DNA of 38,773 nt. It comes from Chloroflexia bacterium. GTDB taxonomy: Bacteria; Chloroflexota; Chloroflexia; QHBQ01; JADMIH01. A model generated the notes under the pieces. The model did no database searches, had not been told where the DNA came from, and saw only the letters and a list, made by a program, of their open reading frames with translations. Below are positions 1,306 to 38,214 of this stretch, piece after piece (position 1 is the stretch's first letter; each line of letters opens with the position of its first letter). Where the stretch lies: NCBI GenBank assembly GCA_038246925.1, contig JBBRVL010000002.1, positions 1-38,773 on the forward strand, written 5' to 3'. Both the position numbers and the translations under genes were made by a program.

Positions 1306-2111
1306 GCCGTATCCCAGCAGCCTTCCGGCGGCTTAAGAAGAATAACGAAGCGGCCCTGGTTCCCTATCTCACAGTCGGATACCCATCAATAGAAGCGACC
1401 CGTACTTTGCTGCCGGTGATTGCCCGTCAGGGTGCCGACCTGATTGAGCTAGGAGTACCCTTCAGCGACCCGCTCGCCGACGGCGCTACTATTCAGCGTG
1501 CGTCACAGGCTGCTCTCGAAGCAGGAATTACCCTCTCTGATTGCCTACAAGTGGCCGCAGAAGCTCGCCGCTCGAATGAAGTGCCGCTCCTGATGATGAG
1601 CTACTTCAATCCGATCCATAAGTACGGCCAGAAGCAATTTGCCGAGGCTGCTTCTTCCTCCGGCGTCGATGGCCTTATCGTACCTGACCTCCCACCTGAT
1701 GAGGCGGGGGAATTCAAGGCTGCATGCGACGAGCGCAACATAGACCTGATTTTTCTGCTGGCTCCTACCAGTACCGACGAGCGCATCCGGCGCGTCACCG
1801 AGATGGCGAGCGGTTTCATTTACTGTGCATCGCTTACCGGGGTGACAGGCGCACGCACAGAATTGAGCCAGGCCCTGCCTGACCTTATCTCTCGCATACG
1901 CCCGCATACCGATCTCCCATTAGTAGCCGGATTTGGGATCAGCACGCCGGAGCAGGTAGCGGACGTAGTCAAAGTGGCAGATGGAGCCATAGTCGCCAGC
2001 GCCCTGATCAACCTGATCGAGACCTTGCCCGCGGACGACCTTATCATAGGCGTGTCCGACTTCATCCGTAGCATGAAAGAGGCGACGGTGGGGTTAGGGG
2101 TTAGGGGTTAG
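1302..2111 (+). CDS. trpA: tryptophan synthase alpha chain
   Basis: 269-aa ORF with a GTG start coupled to the trpB stop. TrpA-like motifs are present: [18 protein letters not shown] and YLTVGYP. The last 6 codons (GLGVRG) and the TAG stop are encoded by the GGGTTAG repeat. Confidence 0.95.
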
Positions 2112-2168
2112 TAGCCAATGCATAAGTCAAGGCTTCACGTTTCCAATCCCTAATCCCTAACCCCTAAC
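2091..2168. repeat. heptamer-repeat inverted pair: GGGTTAG x3 / CCCTAAY x3
   Basis: GGGTTAG x3 lies at 2091-2111, and its last TAG is the trpA stop. A 36-nt loop follows, then CCCTAAT/CCCTAAC/CCCTAAC at 2148-2168. The arms are complementary with one mismatch. It could act as a trpA terminator hairpin. Confidence 0.9.
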
Positions 2169-2228
2169 CCCTTATGTTATACTGGAAGTACCCCCTTCCC
2201 ACGCATGACAGAATTGGAGGTTGCTCCC

Positions 2229-3251
2229 ATGACTTTGCACGACTTGAACGACATGCAGCGGTACCTGGTAGAAGAGGAAGCTGAGAAGTGGCACGAGGGC
2301 CGGATTACCCGGCGTGAGTTGATGCGCCGGGTTTCTCTACTGGTTGGAGGAGCAGCGGCGGCTAGCAGCCTCCTGGTGACGCTCGGCTGCGATCCGAACA
2401 GCCCCGAAGTGGCCCCCGCCGCGACGGCCACCAACATAGCATCTGCCGCCACGCAAGGTACGGAACCATCTCCCGCCGTGTCGGACACGACCCCCACAGC
2501 AGGTCAAGCCAGCGCAAGCCCCAACCACGTCCCTGAGAACGACTCGTCTGTACGCGCCGAGATGGTTGACATAACCTCTTCTGAGGCAGGTGTGAAGTTG
2601 AGAGGCTACCTTGCGGTTCCGGCTGTGCCTGCGATGGGTATGGCAAAGCCTGCGGGTGTCCTGGTTATACACGAGAACAGGGGACTGACTGATCATATCA
2701 AGGATGTAGTCCGGCGCTTCGCTAAGGCCAATTACACGGCGCTGGCGGTAGACCTTGTATCACGCGAAGGCGGAAGCGAGGCCCACCCCGACGAGGCAGA
2801 GCGGACCGCCATCCTGGGGAATCTATCGGCTGATCAGATCATCTCAGACCTCTCTGCTGGTCTGGACCACCTGAAGGGTAAGGCCGAGGCGAACCCAGAC
2901 AGGCTGGCTGTCATCGGATTCTGCTTTGGAGGTGGCTATACCTGGCGAATCGCTACTAAACGTCCCGACCTCAAAGCGGGGGCTGCCTTTTATGGCCCCA
3001 ATCCACCCCTCGAAGATGTGCCGAACATCAAGGCTGCCATGTTGGGCATCTACGGCGGCAACGATACACGTATAACAGGTCAGGCGCCTGCGCTCGAAGA
3101 CGCCCTCAAAAAGGCAGGCGTCAAGTACGAGATAAAGATATACGAAGGCGCCGACCATGCCTTCCACAATGATACGGGCGACCGCTACAACGCCACGGCT
3201 GCTCAGGATGCGTGGGCCAAGACGTTGGAGTGGTTCGGCGCTAATCTGTAG
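2229..3251 (+). CDS. dienelactone hydrolase family protein, probably Tat-exported, possibly a lipoprotein
   Basis: The DLH fold motifs are IHENRGL, the GFCFGG nucleophile elbow and DHAF. The N-terminus has TRRELMRRV followed by a hydrophobic stretch ending LVTLGC, then a Thr/Ala/Pro linker. GGAGG at 2216-2220 lies 8 nt before the ATG at 2229. The ORF track start at 2205 is an alternative. Confidence 0.85.
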   Translation: MTLHDLNDMQRYLVEEEAEKWHEGRITRRELMRRVSLLVGGAAAASSLLVTLGCDPNSPEVAPAATATNIASAATQGTEPSPAVSDTTPTAGQASASPNHVPENDSSVRAEMVDITSSEAGVKLRGYLAVPAVPAMGMAKPAGVLVIHENRGLTDHIKDVVRRFAKANYTALAVDLVSREGGSEAHPDEAERTAILGNLSADQIISDLSAGLDHLKGKAEANPDRLAVIGFCFGGGYTWRIATKRPDLKAGAAFYGPNPPLEDVPNIKAAMLGIYGGNDTRITGQAPALEDALKKAGVKYEIKIYEGADHAFHNDTGDRYNATAAQDAWAKTLEWFGANL

Positions 3252-3295
3252 AGTGGGTGTCCTATCTTCACAGCACGAAATTAGAAAGGAAATAA

Positions 3296-3712: not shown

Positions 3713-3758
3713 ATGCTTTCAGGAGTGCCTTTACCCACATAAGTTGCCGGCGTTCAAT

Positions 3759-3790
3759 CCATAATTCATAACTCAAAAACCATAATTCCC
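3759..3790. repeat. solo C-type heptamer block (CATAATT/CAAAAAC words)
   Basis: The sequence is ccataattcataactcaaaaaccataattccc, just upstream of the mtnP RBS. It uses the same word family as the right arm at 14603-14637. No complementary arm is seen nearby. Confidence 0.7.
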
Positions 3791-3802
3791 GAAGGGAAGA
3801 GG

Positions 3803-4675: not shown

Positions 4676-4685
4676 GTATCGTGGT

Positions 4686-6083
4686 ATGAGTCTTACATCG
4701 CCTTATAAACCCGTACCTAGAACGCCCAGCCAGCGCAATTTCTGGTCGATTGTACGTGGGTTTCGATGGCGTGAGTTCCGGTTGCTCCTTGCCCCCTCAC
4801 TCTTAAGCATCGTAGGTATGCTGATGGTCATCCTTGTGCCGACGGGAGATGTCCAGTGGCAGTGGAAAGACATCTGGATGAGCTTTCTCTTCATCGGGCT
4901 TGTCTACGGAGTCCATGCCTGGCTCAACGTAACTCGGCCTAATGCCGACCAGGTGCTGCTCCCGATCACTGCGACGGCGATGGTGCTTGGCCTGGTGATT
5001 ATCCAGCGCCTCGAGCCTGCCCTGGTGAGCAGGAGTCCCGACTTTGAAGGGATCGCCCGAAAGCAAGTCCTCTGGATCACGCTCGGCATGCTGGCGCTTT
5101 GGTTCACGGCATCTGTAGTGCGCGACATCAATATACTCCGCAAGTACAAATACTCGTTCGCCATCCTGGGTATCGGCCTGGTAGCGGCTACCCTGGTCTT
5201 CGGCACTGACGGTGGCAGCGGCAGCGGGGTGCGCCTCTGGTTCGACTTTGGCTTCTTCCAATTCCAACCATCTGAGCTATTAAAGATACTGCTGGTCATC
5301 TTCCTTGCCGGATACCTGGACGACAAGCGCGAGCTACTTGCATCGCCATATAAGATAGGCCCTTTCAAGCTGCCGCCACTTCCATATCTTGCGCCCCTGC
5401 TCTTGCTTTGGGCCCTTGCTCTGGTCTTGTTTGTCGTGCAAAGAGACCTCGGTAGCGCGATGCTTTTCTTCGGCATATTCCTGGCTATGCTCTACGTCGC
5501 AAGCGGGCGACCTTTTTATGTAGTCGCCGGGCTGTCTCTCTTCTTCGCTGCCGCCTATTCGTTGAACGCCTTTTTCTCTTCTCAGTTCACACACATCCAG
5601 CGCCGCGTGAACATCTGGCTCGACCCGTGGCCGGTTGGGCAAGACGCAGGCTACCAGATCGTCCAGTCGCTCTATGCCCTTGCTTCGGGCGGAGTGCTTG
5701 GCAAAGGTATAGGGTTCGGCTCGCCTGGCTACATCCCGGCTGTACAGACCGACATGGTTATCGCTGCTATAGGCGAGGAGCTTGGGTTGGCCGGAACTCT
5801 CGGGGTGGTCGCGCTCTTCATGCTGCTTGTCTATCGTGGCTACCACATCGGCCTCATGGCGCGCACAGGTTACGAGCAATTGCTGGCCGTGGGCCTCACC
5901 ACTATCCTCGGCCTCCAGACGATTATTATCATCGGTGGGGCTATCAAGATGATCCCCCTGACCGGCATTACTTTACCCTTTATCAGTTATGGCGGTTCGT
6001 CCCTGATAACTAACTGCATTATTATCGGCCTCCTGCTGCGTATTTCCGCGCCCCGTGCCGTACGCACCGAACGCTTGAAGTGA
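4686..6083 (+). CDS. FtsW/RodA/SpoVE (SEDS) family peptidoglycan polymerase, RodA-like by context
   Basis: Multi-pass membrane protein with SEDS motifs: QPSELLKI, the DLGSAML region and PLTGITLPFISYGGSS. The ATG at 4686 begins MSLTSPYK, just after the mtnP stop. The ORF-track start at 4617 overlaps mtnP. A class-B PBP follows directly. Confidence 0.9.
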   Translation: MSLTSPYKPVPRTPSQRNFWSIVRGFRWREFRLLLAPSLLSIVGMLMVILVPTGDVQWQWKDIWMSFLFIGLVYGVHAWLNVTRPNADQVLLPITATAMVLGLVIIQRLEPALVSRSPDFEGIARKQVLWITLGMLALWFTASVVRDINILRKYKYSFAILGIGLVAATLVFGTDGGSGSGVRLWFDFGFFQFQPSELLKILLVIFLAGYLDDKRELLASPYKIGPFKLPPLPYLAPLLLLWALALVLFVVQRDLGSAMLFFGIFLAMLYVASGRPFYVVAGLSLFFAAAYSLNAFFSSQFTHIQRRVNIWLDPWPVGQDAGYQIVQSLYALASGGVLGKGIGFGSPGYIPAVQTDMVIAAIGEELGLAGTLGVVALFMLLVYRGYHIGLMARTGYEQLLAVGLTTILGLQTIIIIGGAIKMIPLTGITLPFISYGGSSLITNCIIIGLLLRISAPRAVRTERLK

Positions 6084-6157
6084 TTTTCGTCGGGTACTAA
6101 AGGCTGTCCACGCTTTGATGTCCTGATCCTTAGTTTGAATCTAGCCTAGAAACAATC

Positions 6158-7903
6158 GTGTACTATATGCTAAGAAGCTTTGTCCGCACCCTGGCCCTCG
6201 CAATAGCCCTCATCTTGCTACTCTTCGGATTCGTCAGCGGGGTCTTTCCTGCTGCTCCTGCTGAAGCGCTGACGCCACCAAATGATAACATTTGGCTACT
6301 CTGCCTCGCGGGTGCCTTCCCACTTCTCCTTATCTATGTGTGGCTACCTGGGACAGACCCCAACGCACCTCAACGTCTCACCCTGGATGCTCGCTTCCGC
6401 CATAACGTGCAGCAGCTTGGCGGCTTCCTTCTTGTGGGGTTTGTGCTAATCAGCCTGCACCTTCTGCGCGAGCAGATTGTTGCTGCTTCGGCGATCAAGA
6501 GCGCCACGGTCATCACCGAGACAGGCGCAGTAATACAGGACCCTCGCAAAGTACCCGAGCAGCTGCGTGTTCGTCGTGGCTCGATCTTCGCCGGGGACAA
6601 AGTTATCGCCGCGAGTGATGTCATTTCACCCTCGCGCTACGTTCACCGCGTCTACCCTGAGCCTAACCTGTCATATCTGGCCGGATATTACAACCCCACA
6701 ATCTATGGATCGGCGGGGCTGGAAGCATCCTTCGATGCCTATCTCTCCGGCAGCGAGGCACTTGACCCGATACTAAAGCAGCAGCGGGATATCCTGCATC
6801 GCCCGGTTATAGGCAACGACATTCGGCTCACGATTGACCCGGCGCTCCAGAACGTGGCACAAGAAGCCCTCGGCGAGCGCAAGGGCGCGGTGGTGTTGCT
6901 TGATGCTCAGAGCGGAGCTATACTGGCGATGGCCTCTTACCCCCATATCGACCCGCAGCAGTTGTCCTTCGACCCCAATCAGGACGATTGGAGTGTCGAG
7001 AACAAGCGCATCATCGATTACTACGAAGGGGTGCTAAACGACCCTTCTAACCCGCTCATCATGCGCGCCACGCAGGGACTCTATCCACCAGGCTCCACGT
7101 TCAAGACCGTTACGTCGGCAGCCGCGATAGACACCAACACCGCGCAGGCGATGTCTGTGTTCAGCGACACGAACGGCAAGGTGAAGGTAGAGGCGGGCAA
7201 CTACGTTCACGCCGACTGCGCCACCTGCCGCCCCGGCAATCACGGCCCCAATTTCACCCTTATTGAAGGATATAAATGGTCACTCAACGTGGTATTTGCC
7301 GAGCTTGGGGTGGCCCTCGGTCAGAACCGCATGGTAGAGTATGCGCGCCGCTTCGGCTTCGGCACACGCTACGACATAGGCGTGCCTGTTGAGGCAAGCC
7401 GTGTGGCGTCCGATCCTGACTTGCTAAAGGGTAAGAACCTGCTCGCTGCCACAGCATACGGACAGGGTGAAGTGCAGGCGACGGCCCTTCAGATGGCGTT
7501 GGTGGCCGCGACAGTGGCTCATGGAGGAGAGGTTCCCGCGCCCTATCTTGTAGCGTCAGTCACCGACCCTGAGACAGGAGCGCCCATCTGGCAGTTCCAG
7601 CCTCGAAACATACAGAGGGCAATCTCACCTCAGACCAACGAAACTGTGAAGCAAATGATGATTACCTCTACTGTGTCGGGTTGGGCAAAGGGTGCTGCAA
7701 TTCCAGGTACTACAGTGGGCGGCAAGACAGGCACCGCCGAGACAGGCCGTGACAGTTCTCACTCATGGTTCACCGGCTTCGCGGGCAAGGACCCTAACCG
7801 CCCGCAATATGCGATAGCTGTGGTCGTAGAAGAGGGTGGTGAAGGTACGCGTGTGGCGCTCCCCCTGGCGCGGACGGTGCTTGTAGCGGCTCTGAACAGG
7901 TAA
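6158..7903 (+). CDS. class B penicillin-binding protein (PbpA-like transpeptidase)
   Basis: N-terminal TM anchor. Transpeptidase motifs are STFK (PGSTFKT), SLN and KTGTAE. Its position directly downstream of a SEDS gene resembles the rodA-pbpA pairing. The start is uncertain: GTG 6158 or ATG 6167. Confidence 0.9.
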   Translation: MYYMLRSFVRTLALAIALILLLFGFVSGVFPAAPAEALTPPNDNIWLLCLAGAFPLLLIYVWLPGTDPNAPQRLTLDARFRHNVQQLGGFLLVGFVLISLHLLREQIVAASAIKSATVITETGAVIQDPRKVPEQLRVRRGSIFAGDKVIAASDVISPSRYVHRVYPEPNLSYLAGYYNPTIYGSAGLEASFDAYLSGSEALDPILKQQRDILHRPVIGNDIRLTIDPALQNVAQEALGERKGAVVLLDAQSGAILAMASYPHIDPQQLSFDPNQDDWSVENKRIIDYYEGVLNDPSNPLIMRATQGLYPPGSTFKTVTSAAAIDTNTAQAMSVFSDTNGKVKVEAGNYVHADCATCRPGNHGPNFTLIEGYKWSLNVVFAELGVALGQNRMVEYARRFGFGTRYDIGVPVEASRVASDPDLLKGKNLLAATAYGQGEVQATALQMALVAATVAHGGEVPAPYLVASVTDPETGAPIWQFQPRNIQRAISPQTNETVKQMMITSTVSGWAKGAAIPGTTVGGKTGTAETGRDSSHSWFTGFAGKDPNRPQYAIAVVVEEGGEGTRVALPLARTVLVAALNR

Positions 7904-8234: not shown

Positions 8235-8682
8235 AATAGCTAACACCAAGCAGATTATCAGTAAAGTCGAAGAGCATATGGCTTTATCATACCGCATCGA
8301 GATGGTACCTGATGTTGATGGTTGGTTTGTCAGCATCCCGGACTTGCCTGGCTGTATAAGTCAAGGCGCTACCCCTGAAGAGGCCCTCGAAATGATCCAA
8401 GATGCTCAGCGTCTCTGGTTGCAAGTATCCCTGGAGCAGGGGCACGATATTCCTGTGCCCAGCACGCAAGAGGACTACATATATAGTGGCAAATTCAACG
8501 TGCGCGTTCCAAAGGATTTGCACCGTGACCTGGCTAATTCGGCTGAGGCACAAGGCGTCAGTCTACTTCTTTTTGTTGCAACCACACTTGCAAGTGCTGT
8601 GAACTCCAAAAGAAAATCCAGACCACCAGCGCCGAAGACGAATTCTATGGGGAATAAGCCACGCGTTGCCGTAAAGAAGTAG
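8227..8682 (+). CDS. hicB: type II toxin-antitoxin system HicB family antitoxin
   Basis: 151 aa. The N-terminal HicB fold contains GWFVSIPDLPGCISQGATPEEAL. The C-terminal ribbon-helix-helix-like segment is GKFNVRVPKDLHRDLA. Confidence 0.88.
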   Translation: MTKIANTKQIISKVEEHMALSYRIEMVPDVDGWFVSIPDLPGCISQGATPEEALEMIQDAQRLWLQVSLEQGHDIPVPSTQEDYIYSGKFNVRVPKDLHRDLANSAEAQGVSLLLFVATTLASAVNSKRKSRPPAPKTNSMGNKPRVAVKK

Positions 8683-10102: not shown

Positions 10103-11723
10103 TTTTCACCCTTTCCCATACATCGTCCATCTCTTCGATGCTCATCCCACTGAGCTTGTCGCCACCCTCTACAATTGCCTGCTCCATCGCAGTGAACCTG
10201 CCGATGAACTTATCATTGGCCCGTCGCAACGCCTCTTCCGTATTCACCCCCATCCATCGCCCGAGGTTCACCAGCGCGAAAAGCAGGTCGCCCAACTCCT
10301 CCGTTCTTTTCTTGGTGCTTTCTTCCGCTTCAAGCTCAGCTATCTCTTCCCGCACCTTATCGAATACATCCTTTACGTCAGACCAGTCAAACCCGACACG
10401 CGCAGCGCGCACCTGCAATTGTTGAGCGCGCTCCAACGACGGCATCGCCCTGGGGACGCTCAATAATAGTCCTGTGCCTTCGAGGCCCTGCTCGGCGGCC
10501 TGCGCGGACTCGAACTTGCGCCCTGCTTTCGCCTTGGCTTCCCTCTCTCCCGCCTTTATCACTTCCCAGTTCTTTATGACGTGATCCGCGCCCGTTACCT
10601 CGACATCGCCGAAGACGTGCGGGTGCCTTCTGATCAGCTTGCTCACGATATGTCCGACTACATCAGCGAGGGTAAACTCCTCATTCGACACCGCGAGTTG
10701 CGAGTGAAACACGACTTGGAGGAGCAAATCTCCAAGCTCCTCGGCAAGCGTATCCGGGTCGCCCGCATCCATCGCATCGACTGCTTCGTATGCCTCTTCG
10801 AGGAGGTGATGCTTGATGGAGTCGTGCGTTTGTTCGCGGTCCCACGGGCAGCCGCCCGGCCCTCGCAGCCTACCCATCACGTAAACCAGCGAGTTGAACT
10901 CTCTCGGTAGTTGGAGCGGCTCCAGGGGCGGGAGGTAAATGCACGCCAGGTGGTTGATGCCGTGCCCACGATCCATCTCCGTCAACGTGGTCTCTATGAC
11001 CTTTTCCTGTCCCGCCACGCCTGCATTAAGCACAACTCTGACAGGGTGTTCATCCGGGTACCGTTCCATCAGCATCAGCTTGCAAGCCGAAGCGACCCTG
11101 TCGTTATATACCTGGCAAATAAGCACGGGGTACATTGGAGAGAGGCCCGCGTTCGCGGAGAATGTTTCAGGGGCCATAGGCATCGAGTATGGGCTGAAGA
11201 GAAAAGGCTCTTCCGATTTTGGATTTTGGATTTTGGATTTTGGATTGTCTGTGCTGCTATTATCCCCACTGGTGAAGCTCGCTAGTTCTGTGCCGTCCAT
11301 AATTTGCAGGCCCCGCTCCAAAGGGTCTATTTCGAGCGCCGTGCATACTGGCTCTATGAAGGAAAGCCCCGACACAAGCCGTAGTTTCACGCCTCGCTCG
11401 GCTGCGTTAGCCCGTAAATGCCTGACTGAAGCCTCACCAATTGCGGGATGGCCGGGAACGCAGTAAATAACAGGGTCACGGCCCTTGACAGCCAGGGAAA
11501 CCAACTCTTCGGCTATCTGCCGGTATATCTCCTCGAACCGTGCTTCACGCTCGTAAAGGTAGTCGAACGTGCGCACGTCAAGATGGCCGGGGAGGTGGTC
11601 GGCGGTAGGGTGGGTCCTTGTGCGTAAGTAGATGGTGCTGGCTGCATCGAGGAGAGCTTTCACCTCGAGAGTAACCTGCTCCCAGGCTCCGGGGCCGAGG
11701 CCTGCGCATACGATTGTTGGCAT
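10083..11723 (-). CDS. YabN-like fusion: tetrapyrrole-methylase-fold domain plus MazG nucleoside triphosphate pyrophosphohydrolase
   Basis: The N-terminal part, IVCAGLGPG...VPGHP, is a methylase-superfamily fold. The C-terminal part has tandem MazG repeats: EEAYEAVDA...ELGDLLLQVVFH and EEIAELE...ELGDLLFALVNL. The start was chosen at MPTIVCAG (11723). The track ORF extends to 11816. Confidence 0.85.
   Translation of the reverse strand: MPTIVCAGLGPGAWEQVTLEVKALLDAASTIYLRTRTHPTADHLPGHLDVRTFDYLYEREARFEEIYRQIAEELVSLAVKGRDPVIYCVPGHPAIGEASVRHLRANAAERGVKLRLVSGLSFIEPVCTALEIDPLERGLQIMDGTELASFTSGDNSSTDNPKSKIQNPKSEEPFLFSPYSMPMAPETFSANAGLSPMYPVLICQVYNDRVASACKLMLMERYPDEHPVRVVLNAGVAGQEKVIETTLTEMDRGHGINHLACIYLPPLEPLQLPREFNSLVYVMGRLRGPGGCPWDREQTHDSIKHHLLEEAYEAVDAMDAGDPDTLAEELGDLLLQVVFHSQLAVSNEEFTLADVVGHIVSKLIRRHPHVFGDVEVTGADHVIKNWEVIKAGEREAKAKAGRKFESAQAAEQGLEGTGLLLSVPRAMPSLERAQQLQVRAARVGFDWSDVKDVFDKVREEIAELEAEESTKKRTEELGDLLFALVNLGRWMGVNTEEALRRANDKFIGRFTAMEQAIVEGGDKLSGMSIEEMDDVWERVKSEQAAP
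11215..11247. repeat. in-CDS heptamer repeat: GATTTTG x4 plus GATTG (CCAAAAT on the sense strand)
   Basis: The tandem 7-mers lie inside the yabN-like ORF and are translated as DNPKSKIQNPKSE in the inter-domain linker. The block is nearly identical to the intergenic block at 36133-36165. Confidence 0.9.
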
Positions 11724-11832: not shown

Positions 11833-11875
11833 CCGCAGAGGCGCGGAGAACGCAGAGTGGATTAGGATTAATTAG
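11833..11875. repeat. low-complexity block: CGCAGAG-like units followed by GGATTAG/GATTAAT
   Basis: The sequence is ccgcagaggcgcggagaacgcagag tggattaggattaattag, between the methyltransferase stop (11872-11874) and the yabN 5' region. The GATTAGG words also occur at 38056-38068. Confidence 0.5.
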
Positions 11876-14559: not shown

Positions 14560-14567
14560 TACTCATT

Positions 14568-14637
14568 GGGAATTATGAGTTTTGAATTAGACGGAAGCAA
14601 ACAATTCATAATTCAAAACTCATAATTCATAATTCCC
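14568..14637. repeat. heptamer-word inverted pair (GGGAATTATGAGTTTTGAATTA / complement)
   Basis: The left arm is 14568-14589. The right arm 14609-14627 is its exact complement for 19 nt, followed by an extra CATAATT unit and CCC (to 14637). It fills the mreB-mreC spacer. Confidence 0.9.
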
Positions 14638-14659
14638 AAAGGGTAATTGAACCATAATT

Positions 14660-15499: not shown

Positions 15500-15503
15500 C
15501 TTC

Positions 15504-15547
15504 GGGAATCATGAATTTTGAGTTATGAATTACAAAACCCAAAATCC
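15504..15547. repeat. G-type heptamer block (GGGAATCATGAATTTTGAGTTATGAATTA) plus CAAAACC/CAAAATC
   Basis: The first part is a variant of the left arm at 14568-14589. It is followed by CCAAAAT-family words. It fills the mreC-mreD spacer, and no complementary arm is present. Confidence 0.7.
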
Positions 15548-19812: not shown

Positions 19813-19845
19813 AAGAGGGACATGCATCGGATGCATGTCCCTCTT
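19813..19845. terminator. bidirectional intrinsic terminator hairpin
   Basis: A perfect 15-bp stem, aagagggacatgcat (19813-19827) with atgcatgtccctctt (19831-19845), and a 3-nt loop. T-rich tails lie on both strands. It sits between convergent genes. Confidence 0.75.
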
Positions 19846-27636: not shown

Positions 27637-27723
27637 TCAGTGGTCGGTGATCGATGTTTCTCTTGTGATCCTACCCATAGGTCCCTTTGCGACTGATAAC
27701 CGACCACTGACTACCGACCACTG
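27631..27723. repeat. heptamer-word inverted pair (GTCAGTG/GTCGGTG words and complement)
   Basis: cggtagtcagtggtcggt (27631-27648, containing the gatD TAG stop) is perfectly complementary to accgaccactgactaccg (27699-27716). The loop is 50 nt. The right arm extends with ACCACTG to 27723. Confidence 0.9.
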
Positions 27724-27740: not shown

Positions 27741-27768
27741 TTGCAATGCTCTCCGAACAGTCTATAAT
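27741..27768 (+). promoter_or_regulatory. candidate dcw (Pmra-like) promoter TTGCAA-N16-TATAAT
   Basis: TTGCAA at 27741-27746 and TATAAT at 27763-27768. It is flanked by AAAGTG(T)GG boxes, about 120 nt upstream of the mraZ ATG. Confidence 0.5.
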
Positions 27769-27778: not shown

Positions 27779-27823
27779 GTGGAAAAAGTGGCGAAAAGTG
27801 GGGAAAAGTGGGGAAAAGTGTGG
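27779..27823 (+). promoter_or_regulatory. putative MraZ operator: five direct (A)AAGTGG boxes at 9-10-nt spacing
   Basis: GTGG starts at 27779, 27788, 27798 and 27808, and GTGTGG starts at 27818. Each is preceded by an A-run. One more AAAGTGTGG box lies at 27726-27734, upstream of the -35. Confidence 0.65.
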
Positions 27824-27887
27824 ACAAGTCGGGCTATTGGGGTTGTGGGTCAGTGTTCAACAGCAAGACCAATGGGTGTGGAGAGCG

Positions 27888-28316: not shown

Positions 28317-29302
28317 TGCCAGAGGTCCAGGGATCGGGGTTCAGGGATCGGGGGTCGGAAGAGCCGCATATACCAGTTCTGCTTGAGGAAGTTATCACGG
28401 GACTACAGCCACGGCCCGGCGGTTCGTATATTGACGGCACGGTTGGGGCGGGAGGCCACTCTGAGGCAATACTGGCGTTGGCTGCTGGAGCAAGGTTGCT
28501 TTGCCTCGATGTCGATACTATGGCCTTCGATATTGCCCGTGAGCGTCTTGCACCCTATGTGAAAAGTGGACAAGTGCATCTGGTTCATTCCAACTTCGAG
28601 CGCTTGGACGAAGTAGCTATTGCTGAAGGATTTCCACAGGTAGACGGGGTACTGCTTGATCTGGGTGTATCATCTATGCAGCTTGATAGGCCGGAGCGTG
28701 GTTTCTCGTTCCGTGAAGATGGCCCGCTCGATATGCGCCTGGACTCTGGTGCCGGGGAGACAGCAGCGGATCTAGTGAACACGCTACCTGAGGAAGAACT
28801 GGCAAACTTGATTTACAAATACGGGGAAGAGAAGGCATCCCGCCGTATAACCCGCCGCATCGTAGAAGCACGAGAGCGCGGTCCAATTACTACCACTTCG
28901 CATCTTGAAGCGATTATATACGGCGCGCTAGGCGGAAAGGTGGCGGGCCGGACGCGCAATCCAATTCATCCAGCTACAAAGACGTTTCAGGCACTACGGA
29001 TCGCTGTCAACCGCGAGCTTAAAGTGTTGGAGAATGGCCTTGCGGCGGCGGTGCGCGTGCTCAAACCGGGCGGCAGGCTGGCGGTGATTTCTTTTCATTC
29101 GCTGGAAGACCGCATTGTAAAACTCTTCATCAGGCAGGAGCAGAAGGGCTGTATCTGCCCGCCTGAGTACCCGGCTTGCGTATGCGGGCGTACACCTACC
29201 CTGAAGGCGGTGAACAACAAGCCGCTCGAAGCGTCTGCCGAGGAAGCACGTCGCAACCCCAGAAGCCGCAGCGCCAAGCTGAGGATAGCAGAGAGAATAT
29301 AA
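28316..29302 (+). CDS. rsmH: 16S rRNA (cytosine1402-N4)-methyltransferase RsmH
   Basis: The ATG overlaps the mraZ TGA (TGATG). Motifs are [31 protein letters not shown] and SFHSLEDR. The track start at 28028 is an out-of-context extension inside mraZ. Confidence 0.95.
28328..28355. repeat. in-CDS 14-nt direct repeat (CAGGGATCGGGGTT / CAGGGATCGGGGGT)
   Basis: Two adjacent 14-nt copies (2 x 7 nt) lie in codons 5-14 of rsmH and encode GSGFRDRGS, in an N-terminal tail ahead of the conserved HIPVLL. Confidence 0.8.
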
Positions 29303-31788: not shown

Positions 31789-31796
31789 TAGATACT

Positions 31797-31895
31797 GAGT
31801 GGTGAGTGATGAGTGGTGAGCGTTCTGTGCTATAATACTCGCCGGATAACACCTGTATTTACAGCTTCTCACCACTCACCACTCACCACTCACCC
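31797..31895. repeat. heptamer inverted pair GAGTGGT-type / CACCACT-type
   Basis: The left arm 31797-31820 (gagtggtgagtgatgagtggtgag) is complementary to 31868-31891 with one mismatch. The loop is 47 nt and contains TGcTATAAT (31828-31836). The right arm ends 3 nt before the murF ATG region. Confidence 0.9.
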
Positions 31896-31898
31896 ATT

Positions 31899-33293: not shown

Positions 33294-33302
33294 AAGGAAA
33301 TA

Positions 33303-34448
33303 TTGATTACGCTATTGCACACTATACTCTCAATTCTGCCAGTGGAAGCCTGGTCGGGCTTCGCATCCGAATTCGGCAGTCTTCTCCTAGGTGTGCTGGC
33401 GCAAACCCCAACCCCAACGCCGCAACCTGGGCTGGGCGGGGGGACGAGCCTACCCGCGGCCGTGATGGTGCGTGCCCTGACGCTCGGCGCGGTGGCTTTC
33501 TTGATTGGGTTAGCGGTTGGCAAGCCGGTAATCAACTGGCTGAGGGATCACCGCATCGGCAAGCACATCCGCATCGAGGGGCCGGAGCGTCACCAGATCA
33601 AGACAGGCACGCCAACCATGGGTGGGCTAATATTCATTATCCCTCTTGTAATCGTCACAGCAGTCTTCATGGACATCCCAAAATATAATTCGCTGCTGTT
33701 GCCTCTGGGTATAATCATAGCTTGCGGCATCCTGGGCGGCTTTGACGACCTGTTGAGCACCGTTGTGCGCAACCGTGGCGGTATGGCGGGACGCTTCAAA
33801 ATGGTGTGGCTTGTGGTAATAGCCGGGATTGCCGCCTGGATACTGGTCTACCAGCTCAAGGTCAATTATGTCTTCATCCCGTTCGTCACCGGGAAGGATA
33901 CGCCGTTTCCCCAGGGTATACTGTTGGGCGACTTCCTCCTGCCTATAGCGGTTCTGGCTATTGTAGGTGCGGCTCATGGGGTCAACCTGACGGATGGGCT
34001 GGATACTCTTGCCGGTGGCACATCAGCCATCGCTTTTGTGTCGTACGGGATCATCGCTTATTTGCAGGGACAGGAGCCTGTGGTCTCCCTCTGTTTCGCT
34101 ACGGTGGGCGCGCTGCTGGCGTTTCTATGGTTCAATGCTCACCCTGCCATGGTCTTCATGGGAGACACCGGTGCGCTTACTCTGGGCGCACTTTTGGCCG
34201 TATGCGCTTTGATGACAGGGCAATGGCTACTGCTGCCTTTGATCGGCATCGTGTTCGTAGCCGTGACCCTCTCAAGCCTGTTGCAAGTACTTTATTTCAA
34301 GCTCACGGGAGGCAAGCGGCTCTTCAGGATGGCTCCCCTGCACCACCACTTCGAGATGATAGGCTGGTCTGAGACCCAGATAACTATGCGCTTCTGGCTG
34401 GTGAGCATACTGGCGGCCATGCTCGGTGTGGCACTAGCACTTACGTAA
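33303..34448 (+). CDS. mraY: phospho-N-acetylmuramoyl-pentapeptide transferase
   Basis: MraY motifs are GTPTMGG, GFDDL, VNLTDGLDTLAGG and APLHHHFE. The TTG at 33303 has an AAGGA RBS. The alternative ATG at 33465 (MVRALTLG) would remove a 54-aa N-terminal extension. Confidence 0.93.
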   Translation: MITLLHTILSILPVEAWSGFASEFGSLLLGVLAQTPTPTPQPGLGGGTSLPAAVMVRALTLGAVAFLIGLAVGKPVINWLRDHRIGKHIRIEGPERHQIKTGTPTMGGLIFIIPLVIVTAVFMDIPKYNSLLLPLGIIIACGILGGFDDLLSTVVRNRGGMAGRFKMVWLVVIAGIAAWILVYQLKVNYVFIPFVTGKDTPFPQGILLGDFLLPIAVLAIVGAAHGVNLTDGLDTLAGGTSAIAFVSYGIIAYLQGQEPVVSLCFATVGALLAFLWFNAHPAMVFMGDTGALTLGALLAVCALMTGQWLLLPLIGIVFVAVTLSSLLQVLYFKLTGGKRLFRMAPLHHHFEMIGWSETQITMRFWLVSILAAMLGVALALT

Positions 34449-34525
34449 GCTATCAGCTATCAGCCATCAGCCGTCAGCTATTAGTTCAAGGTTCGAGGTT
34501 ACTAATCCCTAATCTCTCATCCCCA
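34449..34525. repeat. eleven consecutive 7-nt units (GCTATCA x5 variants, GTTCAAG/GTTCGAG/GTTACTA, ATCCCTA/ATCTCTC/ATCCCCA)
   Basis: The block starts the nucleotide after the mraY TAA. Strict 7-nt phasing is kept across three successive word families. No complementary arm is present in the spacer. Confidence 0.85.
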
Positions 34526-34596
34526 AAATAGTCTGCGATGAACGAAGTGAACTATTGCTCCCTCTGTGTCTTTGCGTTTTATAAAACAATAAAACT

Positions 34597-34631
34597 CTTG
34601 GCGTTTTCTTGGCGCTCTTGGTGTCTTGGCG
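34597..34631. repeat. four direct CTTGGYG repeats just upstream of murD
   Basis: CTTGGCG at 34597, 34608 and 34625, and CTTGGTG at 34617, with irregular 8-11-nt spacing. They lie 23-57 nt before the murD ATG. The track ORF translates them. Confidence 0.5.
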
Positions 34632-34653
34632 GTTCCGTACTTACGCTTCTCGC

Positions 34654-36060
34654 ATGAACTACACAAATAAAAACATCCTGGTGATGGGCCTCGGCGTGCA
34701 TGGAGGTGGGCTGGGTGTGGCCCGTTTCATGGCTCGCAATGGCGCGAACGTGCGTGTCACCGACCTTCGGACCGCCGATAAGATGCAAGACTCCATTAAC
34801 GCCCTTGCCCAGGAAGGTCTTCGGCTCGATTACACGCTGGGTGAGCATCGGGAAGAGGACTTCAAGTGGGCCGATGTGATAGTGAAAAACCCTGCCGTGC
34901 CACGCGACTCCCCCTGGATGCAGCTTGCGCGCTCCCTCGGCAAGCCTATCGAGATGGAGATAAGCATCTTCCTGCGCCTCTGCCCTGCCCCGGTGATAGG
35001 GGTCACAGGCACAAAGGGCAAATCGACTACCGCTACCTGGACCTGGGAGATGCTGCGGCACTGGCGTCCTGATGCCGTTCTCGCGGGCAATCTGCGCGTG
35101 TCCGCCCTCGAAGCTCTCCCGAAGATTTCGCCCGATACGCCGGTTGTACTGGAGCTTTCGAGTTGGCAGCTTGAAGGCCTGGAAGAGCTGCGCCTGTCGC
35201 CACATATCGGGGCGGTTACCAACCTGTCGCCCGACCACATGGACCGCTACAACGGTATGGAAGATTATGGTGAGGCCAAGAAGCTGATCTTCGCCAACCA
35301 GCGTAAAGAGAACGACGACTGGGCCGTGCTGAACGCAGACGATCCTATCGTGAGACAATGGCGTGGGGCGGCTCCGGCAGGTGTTGCCTGGTTTGGCAAA
35401 AGGGTGCCTGCTATGGACTTTCCCGGTATGTCGATCTCCCGCGATTTCCTCGTATGGAACGGGCCGGAAGGCGGCACTACTCATGTGGCCTCATATTCAG
35501 ACATCCAGGTGCCGGGCGAACACAACCGCGCAAACGCCGCCTGTGCCGCTACCATCGCATTGCTCGCCGGTGCGCCGATGGAGGCGGTACGCAAGGGCCT
35601 GCGCTCGTTCCAGGGCGTGCCTGACCGCCTGGAATATCTGCGTACGGTAAGCGGCGTCCGCTTCTATAACGACACCACTTCCACTACCCCTGCCTCTACT
35701 ATGGCGGCGGTGAAATCTTTAGATGGCCCGATAGTGTTGGTCGCGGGCGGCGCGGACAAGGGCCTCGACTTCTCCACGCTCGCGCCGGTGGTTGCATCGA
35801 ATATAGCTTCTGTAGCTCTTCTGGAAGGCACCGCCACACCCCTAATGGAGGAGCAGTTCCTACGGGCAGGCGTGACCCTCCTGGGGCGTTACAGCGTCTT
35901 TGAGGAGGCTGTGCGTGCCGCCTGGCAAGCTTCGCCTCCCGGCGGGGCCGTCCTCCTCTCGCCCGCCACCGCATCTTTCGGTATGTTCCGCAACGAGTTC
36001 GACCGTGGCGACCAGTTCCGCGCCATAGTCTCCTCACTTGTGGAAAACCCCTCTGTATAG
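34654..36060 (+). CDS. murD: UDP-N-acetylmuramoylalanine--D-glutamate ligase
   Basis: The start is MNYTNKNILVMGLGVHGGG. The P-loop is GVTGTKGKSTTA, and DRLE and NDTTSTTP are present. The track start at 34609 reads through upstream repeats. Confidence 0.95.
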   Translation: MNYTNKNILVMGLGVHGGGLGVARFMARNGANVRVTDLRTADKMQDSINALAQEGLRLDYTLGEHREEDFKWADVIVKNPAVPRDSPWMQLARSLGKPIEMEISIFLRLCPAPVIGVTGTKGKSTTATWTWEMLRHWRPDAVLAGNLRVSALEALPKISPDTPVVLELSSWQLEGLEELRLSPHIGAVTNLSPDHMDRYNGMEDYGEAKKLIFANQRKENDDWAVLNADDPIVRQWRGAAPAGVAWFGKRVPAMDFPGMSISRDFLVWNGPEGGTTHVASYSDIQVPGEHNRANAACAATIALLAGAPMEAVRKGLRSFQGVPDRLEYLRTVSGVRFYNDTTSTTPASTMAAVKSLDGPIVLVAGGADKGLDFSTLAPVVASNIASVALLEGTATPLMEEQFLRAGVTLLGRYSVFEEAVRAAWQASPPGGAVLLSPATASFGMFRNEFDRGDQFRAIVSSLVENPSV

Positions 36061-36102
36061 CCCCCGCTAGTCTAAACTAACCTCTACACCCGCTTCATCA
36101 CC

Positions 36103-36165
36103 GTGAAACGTGAAACGTGAGCGCAGGCGTAAACAATCCAAAATCCAAAATCCAAAACCCAAAAT
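36103..36165. repeat. nine phased 7-nt units: GTGAAAC x2, GTGAGCG, ..., CCAAAAT x4
   Basis: The sequence is gtgaaac gtgaaac gtgagcg caggcgt aaacaat ccaaaat ccaaaat ccaaaac ccaaaat, ending 6 nt before the ftsW ATG. The CCAAAAT block is nearly identical to the one inside yabN (11215-11247). Confidence 0.9.
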
Positions 36166-36171
36166 CGAAAG

Positions 36172-37386
36172 ATGTCTCGTTCCCGAAGATTTGAACGCCC
36201 TGATTACTGGATACTGGCCGTGGTCGGCATCCTTTGTACCATTGGCGTGCTCATGGTCTTTTCGTCGAGCGGAGTTGACGCTGATAATCCAACCTACCTG
36301 ATCAACCGCCACGTTCAGTGGCTGGTGCTCGGCTCGATAGCTCTTCTCGTCACGATGAGCGTGCCCTACACGCGCTGGCGGCGCTATTCTGTGCCCTTCA
36401 TTGGCCTTACACTGATACTTCTCGTCCTCGTGCTGGTTGGGCCTTCATTCATTTCTGAAGAGGTAAACGGTTCCAAACGCTGGCTGTCGCTGGGCAATCT
36501 TCCAATATCGTTGCAGCCTTCGGAACTGGCAAAGCTCGCCTTTATTCTCTATCTGGCCGATTGGTGCTCCACCAAAGGGGATAAGGTACGCAACTTTTCC
36601 TATGGCCTGCTCCCTTTCGGGATTATGATGGGCTTGCTGGGTGGCTTGGTATTCATCGAGCCGGATATGGGCACAACGCTGGTGATATTTTCGATAGGCG
36701 TCACGATATTTTTCGTATCGGGCGCGGCGCTCAGCCATATGGCACTTGGCCTGCTGGTTGCGGTACTTACCTTTGCGATGGCGGCGGTGGCCGCGCCCTA
36801 TCGTATGGACCGCGTAGTGGCTTTCTTCGCGAAGGACCCTTTCGACAACGATCCTCTGGGCATCAGTTTCCATATCGTCCAGTCTCTCCTGGCTATCGGC
36901 TCCGGCGGGCTGACCGGGTTGGGGTTGGGTGCGTCCCGCCAGAAGTTCGGCTGGTTGCCTGAGCACTCGACCGATGCCATCTTCTCGGTCTGGGGACAGG
37001 AGATGGGTTTCATCGGCTCGGTCCTGATGATTATGCTCTTCCTGGTCGTAGCCTGGCGGGGATACCGCGTGGCGAGGAATGCTCCCGACGGCTTCGGCGC
37101 GCTCCTAGCAACAGGCGTTACTACCTGGGTTATCTTCCAGTCTATGCTCAATATCGGCGCGGTGAGTGGAGCCATTCCCTTTACCGGCGTGCCTCTACCT
37201 TTTATAAGCTATGGTGGCTCATCACTCGTCATAACCATGTCGGCTATCGGGCTACTGCTGAATATCTCAAAGTACTCTAACTCGCCGGTGTCCGAAGCGC
37301 CTTCTCCTTCCCGTTCTCGCGTACTCAAGATCGATCCGAGGCTCAAGGCCCGCCCGGTTATGGCAGAGTACCGGGAGCGGCATTGA
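36172..37386 (+). CDS. ftsW: SEDS family peptidoglycan polymerase FtsW
   Basis: 404 aa and polytopic, with QPSELAKL, EPDMGTT and PFTGVPLPFISYGGSS. It occupies the canonical position after murD. Confidence 0.92.
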   Translation: MSRSRRFERPDYWILAVVGILCTIGVLMVFSSSGVDADNPTYLINRHVQWLVLGSIALLVTMSVPYTRWRRYSVPFIGLTLILLVLVLVGPSFISEEVNGSKRWLSLGNLPISLQPSELAKLAFILYLADWCSTKGDKVRNFSYGLLPFGIMMGLLGGLVFIEPDMGTTLVIFSIGVTIFFVSGAALSHMALGLLVAVLTFAMAAVAAPYRMDRVVAFFAKDPFDNDPLGISFHIVQSLLAIGSGGLTGLGLGASRQKFGWLPEHSTDAIFSVWGQEMGFIGSVLMIMLFLVVAWRGYRVARNAPDGFGALLATGVTTWVIFQSMLNIGAVSGAIPFTGVPLPFISYGGSSLVITMSAIGLLLNISKYSNSPVSEAPSPSRSRVLKIDPRLKARPVMAEYRERH

Positions 37387-37411
37387 TGACACACCTAGTT
37401 GGGTTGGCGCT

Positions 37412-38035
37412 ATGGTAATTAACCTTGAGTGGTGGCAGTGGCTCCTTCCGGCGGTGATAGCCGCCGTGGTCGTTGGCGTCTACATGGGGTGGCGCGTCAT
37501 GGCGATCTGGACCCTGGGCGTCTATTTCAGCGGCATCACCGCGCAGTTCATGGGGCCAAAGCTGGAGAAGCTTATCAACAAGTTCCTGAGCGTCTTCGCG
37601 CAGTTCTTTGCCATAGCTACTGACAAAGATGAATCTACTATCACCTCCCCCCAGATCGATATTGCTTCGCCATGGGAGCCGTTCGCCACAGCCATCCTAT
37701 TTGTGTCGCTCGTATTTTTCTCCTGGTGGATAGCACGTAAGCTAACGGCCCGTGGTGAGCTTGGCTTGATCGGGCACCTGCTTGGCGGGGTATTCGGGGG
37801 GTTCGCCGCCGTCCTCGGTCTGTCGCAGGCGCTCAATTATTGGGCTGATTTTGTATCGCGCAGCGGGTCCAATCCCTCCACAGGCGCGGGTCTGACTGTT
37901 CCACAGATTTCCGTAGGTGTAGCCCCCCTTCCAGACGCCAATCCTCTGGCGACGATGGCAGGCCCGATCATGGGCCTTTTTATCCTCCTCATAATTGTGT
38001 ACACTGTGTGGCGAGTGTTCCGCACTGCTGCGTGA
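37412..38035 (+). CDS. uncharacterised integral membrane protein, weakly CvpA-like
   Basis: 207 aa with 4-5 hydrophobic segments. The Gly-rich helix LIGHLLGGVFGGFAAVLGL is reminiscent of the CvpA family (from memory, not searched). It starts 25 nt after ftsW, where murG usually sits. Confidence 0.6.
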   Translation: MVINLEWWQWLLPAVIAAVVVGVYMGWRVMAIWTLGVYFSGITAQFMGPKLEKLINKFLSVFAQFFAIATDKDESTITSPQIDIASPWEPFATAILFVSLVFFSWWIARKLTARGELGLIGHLLGGVFGGFAAVLGLSQALNYWADFVSRSGSNPSTGAGLTVPQISVGVAPLPDANPLATMAGPIMGLFILLIIVYTVWRVFRTAA

Positions 38036-38038
38036 TTA

Positions 38039-38214
38039 GCGATGAGTGGTGAGTGATTAGGGATTAGGAGGATATTTCATACGGAAGGGAACGGATTCTT
38101 CACTTCGTTCAGAATGACAATGGGGAGTGGGTTCGTGTCTCTTCAGGTTTCCACTCATCGCTCACCACTCACCACTCACCACTCACCACTCACCACTCAC
38201 CACTCATCGCTCAC
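38039..38214. repeat. largest heptamer element: GCGATGAGTGGTGAGTG + ATTAGGGATTAGG ... CCACTCATCGC + CACCACT x6 + CATCGCTCAC
   Basis: 38039-38055 is perfectly complementary to 38194-38210 (17 bp). 38039-38049 also matches 38151-38161. Six tandem CACCACT units lie at 38163-38204. The element fills the spacer before murC. Confidence 0.9.

Follow-up and report, generated by a model that had tools for sequence, protein, structure and literature searches.

What are the runs of 7-nt units that separate the cell-wall and division genes of a Chloroflexia bacterium, and what holds them at gene borders? We address this question for a stretch of 38,773 nt (contig JBBRVL010000002.1 of assembly GCA_038246925.1, positions 1 to 38,773, hereafter the window), in which tandem heptanucleotide arrays often stand as a G-rich arm after a stop codon and a complementary arm before the next start codon. 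Our reading, to which we give a probability of about 0.6, is that these are heptanucleotide arrays of the class of short tandemly repeated repetitive (STRR) sequences: they would be driven by slippage, their arms would be homogenised via hairpins, and selection would confine and orient them at gene borders.

The period-7 arrays of the window

Tandem Repeats Finder reports eleven period-7 arrays in the window. A separate period scan counts 10 strong runs at period 7, where the periods 4-6 and 8-12 have 0-1 each. Dinucleotide-preserving shuffles of the window (n=100) contain 0.14 such runs on average and never more than 1, so that at the scale of the window the repeat family described in a first-pass annotation of this DNA is borne out. 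With gene borders drawn from NCBIfam matches and inspection of start codons, 9.7% of the sequence is intergenic; eight of the ten strong runs fall in this fraction (binomial p = 3e-7), and the other two are the trpA-proximal arm and an array in yabN/mazG. The annotation had counted at least twelve junctions with arrays. The arrays are real, but only seven junctions carry them clearly; about four more show weak traces (2-unit traces in the spacers at 3760-3796, 15503-15547 and 11859-11874, and a period-14 repeat at 28324-28353), and one array lies within the yabN open reading frame (ORF). Nor do the spacers consist largely of these elements, as had been supposed, since the arrays fill roughly 20-50% of them. 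The sites are listed below, where G-type marks units rich in G on the strand read and C-type the complementary kind:

2090-2111, + strand: (GGGGTTA)x3.1, G-type arm; covers the last 7 trpA codons (VGLGVRG) and the TAG stop
2145-2172, + strand: (CCCTAAC / AATCCCT)x3.6-4, C-type, pairs with 2090-2111; upstream of the YghX-like hydrolase gene
3760-3796, + strand: weak C-type copy of the composite GGGAATTATGAGTTTTGAATTA family; directly before mtaP
11215-11246, - strand: (AAAATCC)x4.6 on the sense strand, in frame in the yabN/mazG ORF; encodes NPKSKIQNPKS, in a linker
11859-11874, + strand: weak GGATTAG trace of 2 units; overlaps the stop of a minus-strand methyltransferase gene
14560-14594, + strand: G-type arm GAATTAT/GAGTTTT with a conserved head; begins 1-6 nt past the mreB stop
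14603-14646, + strand: C-type arm AATTCAT/AACTCAT, pairs with 14560-14594, with the period-7 array called at 14603-14635; upstream of mreC
15503-15547, + strand: mreC-mreD spacer, with another copy of the GGGAATCATGAATTTTGAGTTATGAATTA element, then CAAAACCCAAAATCC
27630-27653, + strand: G-type arm GTCAGTG/GTCGGTG; the gatD stop (27634-27636) lies within the stem
27695-27723, + strand: C-type arm, its unit variants in the reverse order of the other arm; lies before the mraZ promoter (27741-27768)
28324-28353: period-14 G-rich repeat GGTCCAGGGATCGG x2.1; occupies the short mraZ-rsmH spacer
31796-31820, + strand: (TGAGTGG)x3.6, G-type arm; begins 8 nt past the ftsI stop
31868-31894, + strand: (CTCACCA)x3.9, C-type arm; ends 4 nt before the murF ATG
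34448-34481, + strand: (AGCTATC)x4.9, unpaired, C-type; begins at the mraY stop, an exception to G after a stop
34502-34523, + strand: (CTAATCC)x3, unpaired, C-type; GGGATTA word family
36102-36120, + strand: (CGTGAAA)x2.7, unpaired; word found in 5 genomes
36135-36170, + strand: (AATCCAA)x5, unpaired, G-free; ends directly before the ftsW ATG
38038-38068, + strand: G-type arm GATGAGTGGTGAGTG then GATTAGGGATTAGG; begins 3 nt past the stop of a 207-aa ORF
38151-38214, + strand: (CCACTCA)x9.1, C-type arm, only partly pairable; ends 13 nt before the murC ATG

An inverted-repeat search returns five complementary arm pairs, with stems of 18-25 bp and loops of 19-138 nt. They are the five junctions at which pairing had been proposed, and at each the upstream arm begins within a few nt of the stop codon:

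trpA-yghX, 2090-2111 with 2150-2171: 22 nt, 95% complementary, 38 nt between arms
mreB-mreC, 14565-14589 with 14609-14633: 25 nt, 92% complementary, 19 nt between arms
gatD-mraZ, 27630-27652 with 27695-27717: 23 nt, 96% complementary, 42 nt between arms
ftsI-murF, 31796-31820 with 31868-31892: 25 nt, 96% complementary, 47 nt between arms
207-aa ORF-murC, 38038-38055 with 38194-38211: 18 nt, perfect, 138 nt between arms

Folding of the junction RNAs agrees with this picture. Four hairpins fold at -45.6, -31.9, -45.3 and -50.0 kcal/mol (z -6.3 to -8.1); the 207-aa ORF-murC hairpin is weaker as a whole (z -1.9) and still has its perfect 18-bp stem. The correspondence between arms extends to unit variants, as TCGGTAG, TCAGTGG and TCGGTGA are mirrored in the two arms of the gatD-mraZ pair. 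The arrays of the mraY-murD and murD-ftsW spacers are not complementary to each other. C-type arrays stop 4, 7 and 13 nt before murF, ftsW and murC, and about 5-19 nt before the start in relatives. The 39-kb window holds at least eight unrelated words, some of them at several sites (GGGATTA-type words at 4, AAAATCC at 3, GAGTGGT at 2, the GAATTAT composite at 3). Three junctions hold between them four copies of a composite element of about 35 nt, CCYTTYGGGAATTATGRNTTTTGAGTTATGAAT, all with the non-periodic head CCYTTYGGGAAT.

The order of the arms, G then C, is clearly non-random. Among 24 inverted pairs of period 7, 20 have more G than C in their left arm (two are neutral, two score -1), and no spacer in about 200 kb shows a C-type array before a G-type array. 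By our own tally, start-proximal arrays are G-poor on the sense strand in about 27 cases with 3-4 exceptions, and stop-proximal arrays are G-rich on it in about 24 cases with 1-2 exceptions; several C-type words of the window are entirely free of G (CTCACCA, AATCCAA, CCACTCA, CTAATCC and CCCTAAC). The annotation had described the G-led arm as always first on the coding strand and the arrangement as transcription-oriented. The first statement is true, but it is equally true of the other strand, and the C-type AGCTATC array follows a stop. The second does not hold: on reverse complementation, a G-rich block with a C-rich block behind it yields the same order again, so the polarity says nothing about the strand. 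It is equivalent to the rule that the sense strand is G-rich after stops and G-poor before starts, whether a spacer is co-directional, convergent or divergent, and we therefore rejected, on logic, a G-first order as a sign of transcription polarity. Mismatches between arms, read on the sense strand, comprise 24 A.C and 8 G.U, many of them copies of one unit variant. The excess of A.C is the opposite of the wobble signature expected from pairing in sense RNA, and is only suggestive.

The arrays are also less restricted to operon junctions than had been thought. Among the loci from related genomes that we compared with the window (numbered L001, L002 and so on), L001 carries in its MurT gene (2827-2921) an in-frame insertion of about 26 codons, (GACGAAC)x4 followed by (ATCCAAA)x4, that is missing from the window MurT; it and the yabN array of the window encode the same NP(R/K)SKIQNPKS peptide. 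In L012, a spacer between divergent genes holds GACAACG x9, GAAACGT and GACGATA, then TCACGYA and TCCGTCG, upstream of a TATAAT box. The murD-ftsW arrays of the window lie downstream of a promoter-like motif, GTGGAAAAC...TAGTCT, and hence in a 5' leader. This conserved motif, GTGGAAAAC ... TAG(A/T)CT (36040-36073 in the window), overlaps the end of murD, occurs in the murD-ftsW spacers of L002, L003, L005, L006, L007 and L012, and looks like a putative internal promoter for ftsW. TGTGGAAA also stands before the -35 element of the mraZ promoter.

Arrays turn over much faster than their flanking genes

The host is a member of the Chloroflexia. By NCBIfam matches the window contains trpBA, a RodA/PBP pair, mreBCD-mrdA-minC, MurT/GatD and the complete cluster mraZ-rsmH-ftsL-ftsI-murF-mraY-murD-ftsW-(207 aa)-murC, and its closest homologues come from uncultured Chloroflexia (MurF 67-76%, MreB up to 97% identity). 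Both the gene content (the mraZ-rsmH-ftsL-ftsI-mur cluster and MurT/GatD) and the nearest MurF and MreB homologues rule out a cyanobacterial host. Since the host thus belongs to another phylum, we place the arrays beside the cyanobacterial families STRR1-3, as elements of one kind with them, and not within those families.

Eight related Chloroflexia loci share the synteny of the division and cell wall (dcw) cluster, and five of them show an excess of period 7 exclusively, with 4-17 runs per 13-21 kb. A few Anaerolineae loci (Ca. Leptofilum, Promineifilaceae) are also rich in arrays; most other Chloroflexota loci have none. No window-like heptamer arrays were found in 21-kb samples of a Herpetosiphonaceae metagenome-assembled genome (MAG), Roseiflexus and Chlorohelix, samples too small to call these lineages array-free; that of Roseiflexus has only two short G+C-rich period-7 runs. 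A metagenome scan with MurF added one close relative, L034, whose 2.8-kb contig is informative for a single junction.

At orthologous junctions the same architecture recurs with different words, and in some relatives it is absent. The ftsI-murF spacer carries TGAGTGG/CTCACCA in the window, TGATGCG/TCACGCA in L002, AGTCGAA/TTCGACT in L007 and AAAGTTC/GAACYTT in L012; in L001 it has two non-complementary arrays, and in L003 no heptamers. Paired arms are found at this junction in 4-5 of eight genomes, and between the 207-aa ORF and murC in 5-6 of eight, where the window, L001, L006, L007 and L012 each have their own word. The junction between ftsW and the 207-aa ORF is paired in L007 and L012 and measures just 25 nt in the window. 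L072 is among the closest relatives (MreB 97% identical in amino acids, mreB 91% and mreC 82% in nucleotides): it aligns up to the mreB stop and resumes at the mreC start, and its 87-nt spacer is unalignable and free of heptamers. At the same junction L073 (91%) has TAGGGAA/TTCCCTA, its contig ending within the array, and L084 (81%) has TCAGGTA facing 13 units of ACCGGAC/ACCTGAY. The mraY-murD spacer measures 204 nt in the window, about 66 nt in L034 (MurF 92%), where (TCACGTT)x3 stands in place of the arrays of the window, and 33-43 nt in L002, L003 and L012, which have no arrays there. Arrays thus do lengthen otherwise compact junctions, as the annotation had proposed. Spacers can also be long in their absence, as at ftsI-murF in L003, which reaches 317 nt without heptamers. 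Taken together, these comparisons show that the presence or absence of arrays, and their words, turn over much faster than the flanking genes.

Two pairs of close relatives show how arrays change. In the Anaerolineaceae loci L040 and L011, which are 96% identical, an orthologous ATCACCC array differs by 49 nt, that is 7 units, and the predominant unit variants also differ. Between L007 and L012 (86-88% nucleotide identity), all three shared paired junctions have changed word in both arms: GACGAAA/TTTCGTC against GACGACG/CGTCGTC at the first, GGATTTT/AAAATCC against GAATTTT/AAAATTC at the second, and AGTCGAA/TTCGACT against AAAGTTC/GAACYTT at the third, ftsI-murF. Remnants of the older word persist at the outer ends of the L012 arms. 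Arrays therefore evolve unit-wise and in place, with their arms coupled; sequence alone cannot decide whether this coupling is mechanical, through fold-back template switching, or selective.

More than 50 words occur across the relatives, and some recur at unrelated sites: AAACGTG arrays are found in five genomes at non-orthologous sites, the seven AAAATCC arrays are spread over three genomes, and each of the words ACGCATC, ACGACGG and ACGATAG is found in three. TTCAAAA is present as (TTCAAAA)x5 before murC in L012. A small vocabulary dispersed over many loci is a hallmark of STRR families, and it leaves room for some copying between loci.

Other features share these spacers. A small ORF in the mraY-murD spacer of L001 (13795-14288) resembles the four-helix-bundle (23S rRNA intervening-sequence) protein family; it is inserted between two arms, GATTTTG at the stop before it and ATCCAAA at the start that follows. 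The mraY gene itself is tandemly duplicated in L001, L004, L005 and L006 (two tblastn hits each) and single-copy in the window, L002, L003, L007 and L012. Octamer-like repeats, TCTTGGCG x4, lie upstream of murD in the window (34596-34632); in an unrelated divergent spacer of L012, a near-identical run (20340-20376) separates the G-type from the C-type heptamer arrays. In L084, a GC-rich relative, an octamer family, ACACGGAG / CTCCGTGT, occupies six intergenic sites (4756-5028, 6641-6664, 8544-8568), two of which begin exactly 16 nt past a stop, and some of which pair into hairpins; the family looks like a counterpart of the heptamer arrays with 8-nt units. Ten contigs with identical MreB, L074-L083, have at mreB-mreC a GC-rich non-heptamer palindrome of about -70 kcal/mol, of which L081 carries a 27-nt shorter variant that still folds, and L076, L077 and L083 share a 142-nt duplication upstream of mreB. 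The mraZ-rsmH spacers of relatives contain the G-rich heptamers CGGAGTG and GGACGGC where the window has GGTCCAGGGATCGG. A dispersed palindrome unrelated to the heptamers, GTCATTCTGAGCGAAGCGAAGAAT / ATTCTTCGCTTCGCTCAGAATGAC, is present as a half-copy at 38095-38118 of the window, in the loop between the 207-aa ORF and murC, with copies in L005 (14958, 15028), L007 (5300, 5384, 9787, 9843) and L084 (959, 1067). Upstream of mraZ lies a strong sigma-70-like promoter, TTGCAA-16-TATAAT (27741-27768), and after it come five 10-nt repeats, AAAAGTGGGG, at 27784-27833, about 55 nt before the ATG; this arrangement is conserved in L005, and the repeats look like MraZ operator boxes. Finally, a perfect 16-bp palindrome with a 1-nt loop, AAGAGGGACATGCATC / GATGCATGTCCCTCTT, at 19813-19845, follows a 174-aa ORF in a convergent spacer and is a possible candidate for a bidirectional terminator.

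How the arrays may arise and persist

In the reading that we favour, replication slippage would be the source of unit gain and loss. In single-stranded DNA the two arms would fold back on each other, and one could template the correction or extension of the other by intrastrand template switching; the hairpin would thereby outlive the complete replacement of its word, with no selection required. Purifying selection would in turn set where arrays persist: those in coding sequence would be lost unless in frame and free of stops, and those before genes would be made to halt some 5-15 nt before the start codon. Every bacterial start codon and Shine-Dalgarno core contains G. A G-rich 7-nt repeat would offer starts or Shine-Dalgarno sequences in all three frames; G-free units are without ATG, GTG, TTG and Shine-Dalgarno-like runs, and the mRNA next to a start codon would presumably tolerate only the G-poor strand. 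If a G-poor arm is required at the start, the partner arm at the upstream stop would be G-rich, which could account for the order G then C. As a by-product, read-through transcripts would carry perfect stems of 18-47 bp that set the stop beside the following ribosome-binding site. It is possible that such stems influence the stability of mRNA 3' ends, RNase III processing or translational coupling, effects that we would regard as secondary and local and not as the reason for the elements. At ftsI-murF, murF may in addition be transcribed from within the hairpin loop, since the loop carries TGcTATAAT (31826-31836) and a GTTATGCTTT motif is conserved in related spacers; the leader of such transcripts would hold the unpaired G-free arm only. 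Among the roles first proposed for the arrays, that of a hairpin-propagating selfish repeat comes close to what the comparative data favour.

Several observations weigh against this account. Selection on RNA structure would likewise be expected to leave several genomes with paired arms at one and the same junction, and to bring about compensatory word changes. Arrays stand at both edges of a spacer with a unique middle between them, a layout that simple slippage does not predict. Identical words are found across genomes and even phyla, as for TTCAAAA upstream of Nostoc genes and of murC in L012, which hints at sequence-specific selection or at a mechanism beyond slippage. The avoidance of G before starts is contradicted by the G-rich words CGGAGTG and GGACGGC, which lie 10-30 nt upstream of rsmH in L001, L007 and L012. 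The comparison of unit numbers comes from L040 and L011 and not from strains of the window's own species, and template switching rests on inference, not on observation.

The alternative that survives best, although we consider it only a tentative one, is that the hairpins are adaptive intercistronic RNA structures, in which selection keeps a long stem and the word is irrelevant. They could protect 3' ends, serve as RNase III sites that uncouple the stabilities of neighbouring cistrons, or promote re-initiation or coupling. RNase III substrates are about two helical turns in size, and so are the stems, which measure 18-25 bp (in L012 as many as 47 bp); four of them fold far better than shuffled sequences. 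Moreover, the arms adjoin the stop and end about 5-15 nt before the start, the change of word in both arms between L007 and L012 amounts to covariation, and in several genomes pairs recur at one and the same junction. Such roles have also been suggested for STRR hairpins of cyanobacteria (PMC2670836), and in Anabaena stem-loops at processing sites stabilise nif transcripts (PMC4284476). However, the hairpin is missing at the same junction in close relatives (L072, L003), many arrays are unpaired (mraY-murD, murD-ftsW), and arrays also occur in ORFs and in a divergent promoter spacer. The preponderance of A.C over G.U mismatches fits poorly too, as a helix of sense RNA would tolerate G.U. The lack of a Shine-Dalgarno sequence at murF and murC does not help this alternative either, being a property of the genes and not of the arrays: we looked for an array-specific loss and found that both genes are without one in all relatives, arrays or not. 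At the gathering threshold, Rfam has no family anywhere in the window.

It is unlikely that the arrays are very small mobile elements, of a kind resembling miniature inverted-repeat transposable elements or small dispersed repeats, whose heptamer arms insert at gene borders, occasionally in genes, and are then reshaped by slippage. Such an origin would suit the four composite copies of about 35 nt with their common non-periodic head, the occurrence of the same words at unrelated loci of different genomes, the in-frame insertions in yabN and in L001 MurT that are absent from the orthologue, the replacement of an entire spacer between close relatives, and the presence of other small dispersed palindromes in the same spacers. 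Against it, no target-site duplication, fixed length or associated transposase was seen in about 400 kb (the window and related loci), and the arrays of L007 and L012 are clearly homologous and have diverged in place. The arms also enclose native conserved spacer, as with the GTTATGCTTT/TATAAT upstream of murF, which lies in the loop or outside it depending on the genome. The REP/BIME elements of proteobacteria consist of one conserved imperfect palindrome of 35-40 nt, mobilised by a RAYT transposase, that is intergenic and can stabilise upstream mRNA. The window arrays are similar in being dispersed intergenic hairpin-forming repeats inside operons, tolerated between genes rather than within them; they differ in that their arms are tandem 7-nt units with another word at each junction. 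No RAYT (IS200/IS605-like) transposase was seen in the window or in the 13-21 kb pieces of relatives.

Doubtful, too, is the idea that the arrays, far from being passive microsatellites, are the footprint of a dedicated, lineage-restricted process that writes or propagates heptamers from a limited vocabulary as self-complementary pairs at gene borders, the stems being used by the cell afterwards. This process would be common to filamentous bacteria from more than one phylum (cyanobacteria, Beggiatoaceae, some Chloroflexota). The stems would bring the stop beside the next start, so that ribosomes and RNases would treat a spacer of 100-200 nt as one of a few nt, allowing shunt-like re-initiation or programmed processing inside essential operons. 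Mildly suggestive of it are the words common to different genomes and phyla, the strictness of the G-then-C chirality, arms that are replaced in concert and the placement at spacer edges.

We hold it very improbable that the arrays are binding sites for a protein that reads 7-nt steps and regulates translation or transcription of the downstream gene, be it an OB-fold cold-shock or S1-type protein on RNA, a DNA-binding regulator or a nucleoid protein. Start-proximal arrays are strongly biased to one strand, a heptamer footprint is reported for CspB, and such binding was considered for the TAACTGA repeats of Beggiatoaceae (PMC4679880), and deletion of heptamer repeats altered the output of a Nostoc recO reporter (bioRxiv 10.1101/2022.06.06.494920). 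Yet half of the arrays would be duplexed with their partner, orthologous sites swap their word freely, and the great number of words, in the window as across the relatives, makes a sequence-specific reader unlikely.

Least probable of all are intrinsic terminators or attenuators, as first suggested, since despite a stable hairpin directly after the stop at five junctions, that of gatD lying just before the separate mraZ promoter, a scan for hairpins with a 3-8 nt loop and a T run (a limit outside which the 19-138 nt loops of the heptamer hairpins fall) gives 13 terminator-like sites against 10.8 expected, no enrichment, with 0/13 at a heptamer hairpin, and the hairpins separate genes of essential pathways that require co-expression, their downstream arm ending at the next ribosome-binding site. 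G-quadruplexes and a CRISPR array were also considered and rejected: only GGGGTTA x3.1 has G-tracts (GAATTAT, GTCAGTG, GAGTGGT, CGTGAAA and AGCTATC have none), where G-quadruplex heptamers call for four or more successive units with a G3+ tract in each, and the units are contiguous 7-mers, not repeats of 24-48 nt with unique spacers.

Known heptamer repeats and the place of the Chloroflexia arrays

STRR sequences have been known since 1990 and are used for fingerprinting, while their origin and function are not understood; they were reportedly first described by Mazel and colleagues in 1990, and also by Jackman and Mulligan in 1995. The link to them made in the first-pass annotation is apt: tandem 7-nt units, several unrelated words per genome, many dispersed intergenic sites and inverted arrays forming hairpins between co-transcribed genes (in cyanobacteria also in nif spacers) are common to both, as are spacers that vary strongly among close relatives and yet stay structured. 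A study of Nostoc hydrogenase proteases regards 7-bp STRR hairpins as no rarity among filamentous cyanobacteria and describes them between hupS and hupL in four species (PMC2670836); their function is unknown, transcript stability, translational coupling and termination being the candidates (PMC2670836). The arrays described here differ in their host, a member of the Chloroflexia with a full dcw cluster, and in their words, although TTCAAAA and GGGATT-like words overlap those of Nostoc. For STRR sequences we found no documentation of the G-then-C polarity, of concerted word change in both arms or of in-frame copies in essential genes, all of which are shown here.

Within the same phylum and class, Chloroflexus aurantiacus was the bacterium richest in satellites in the survey of Subirana & Messeguer 2019, with 22 satellites built from the heptamer GATAGRA (PMC6749651), to which GACGATA/ACGATAG in L007, L012 and L087 are related. 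That survey counted satellites only, without gene position, pairing, polarity or turnover, whereas the clade of the window uses many words. In Xanthomonas, Rehm et al. 2015 described intergenic GGGAATC repeats, some in inverted pairs, together with GGGGAYT in Nostoc (PMC4692102); they cite a 2007 observation that heptamers are over-represented among bacterial simple sequence repeats, and the idea of polymerase slippage (PMC4692102). Inverted pairs, and array lengths and sequences that vary between related species at the same genes, are features of both systems, and the words GGGGTTA, GGGATTA and TAGGGAA of the window clade resemble theirs. Theirs, however, are defined by G-tracts able to form G-quadruplexes, which most words here cannot do. 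MacGregor 2015 described, from Beggiatoaceae, cyanobacteria and Bacteroidetes, TAACTGA arrays that stop a few nt short of start codons (PMC4679880). They resemble ours in their fixed orientation close to the start, in the poor Shine-Dalgarno sequences of the affected starts and in that some reach back into the final part of the upstream ORF or lie translatably in ORFs; they differ in having a single dominant word and inverted pairs in 1/170 sets, whereas here words are many, pairs are common and TAACTGA is absent. In Nostoc, TTCAAAA arrays are reported near start codons, and deletion of heptamer repeats to affect a reporter (bioRxiv 10.1101/2022.06.06.494920).

In view of the STRR hairpins (PMC2670836), the inverted pairs of Xanthomonas (PMC4692102) and the satellites of C. 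aurantiacus (PMC6749651), the paired arrangement is not, as the annotation had it, beyond assignment to a described element. Elements of this class are known, and earlier work mentions them briefly for Chloroflexi; we found no description of their anatomy, polarity, concerted arms and turnover in Chloroflexia.

The arrays have practical consequences, as they break short-read assemblies (L073 ends inside one) and inflate N-terminal ORF calls, and annotators of Chloroflexota MAGs should expect them. They also constrain any mechanism that may be proposed, which has to provide for change by whole units, for concerted change of word in both arms and for a fixed chirality independent of the direction of transcription, in which the G-rich strand points inward from the gene border. 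Natural experiments are provided by genomes that are 80-97% identical and whose orthologous junctions bear arrays, lack them or bear different ones. The abundance of STRR-like arrays in a clade of Chloroflexia, which would not surprise a specialist, means that the phenomenon is not peculiar to cyanobacteria, and in this lineage an old question, still open, gains a second and independent study system.

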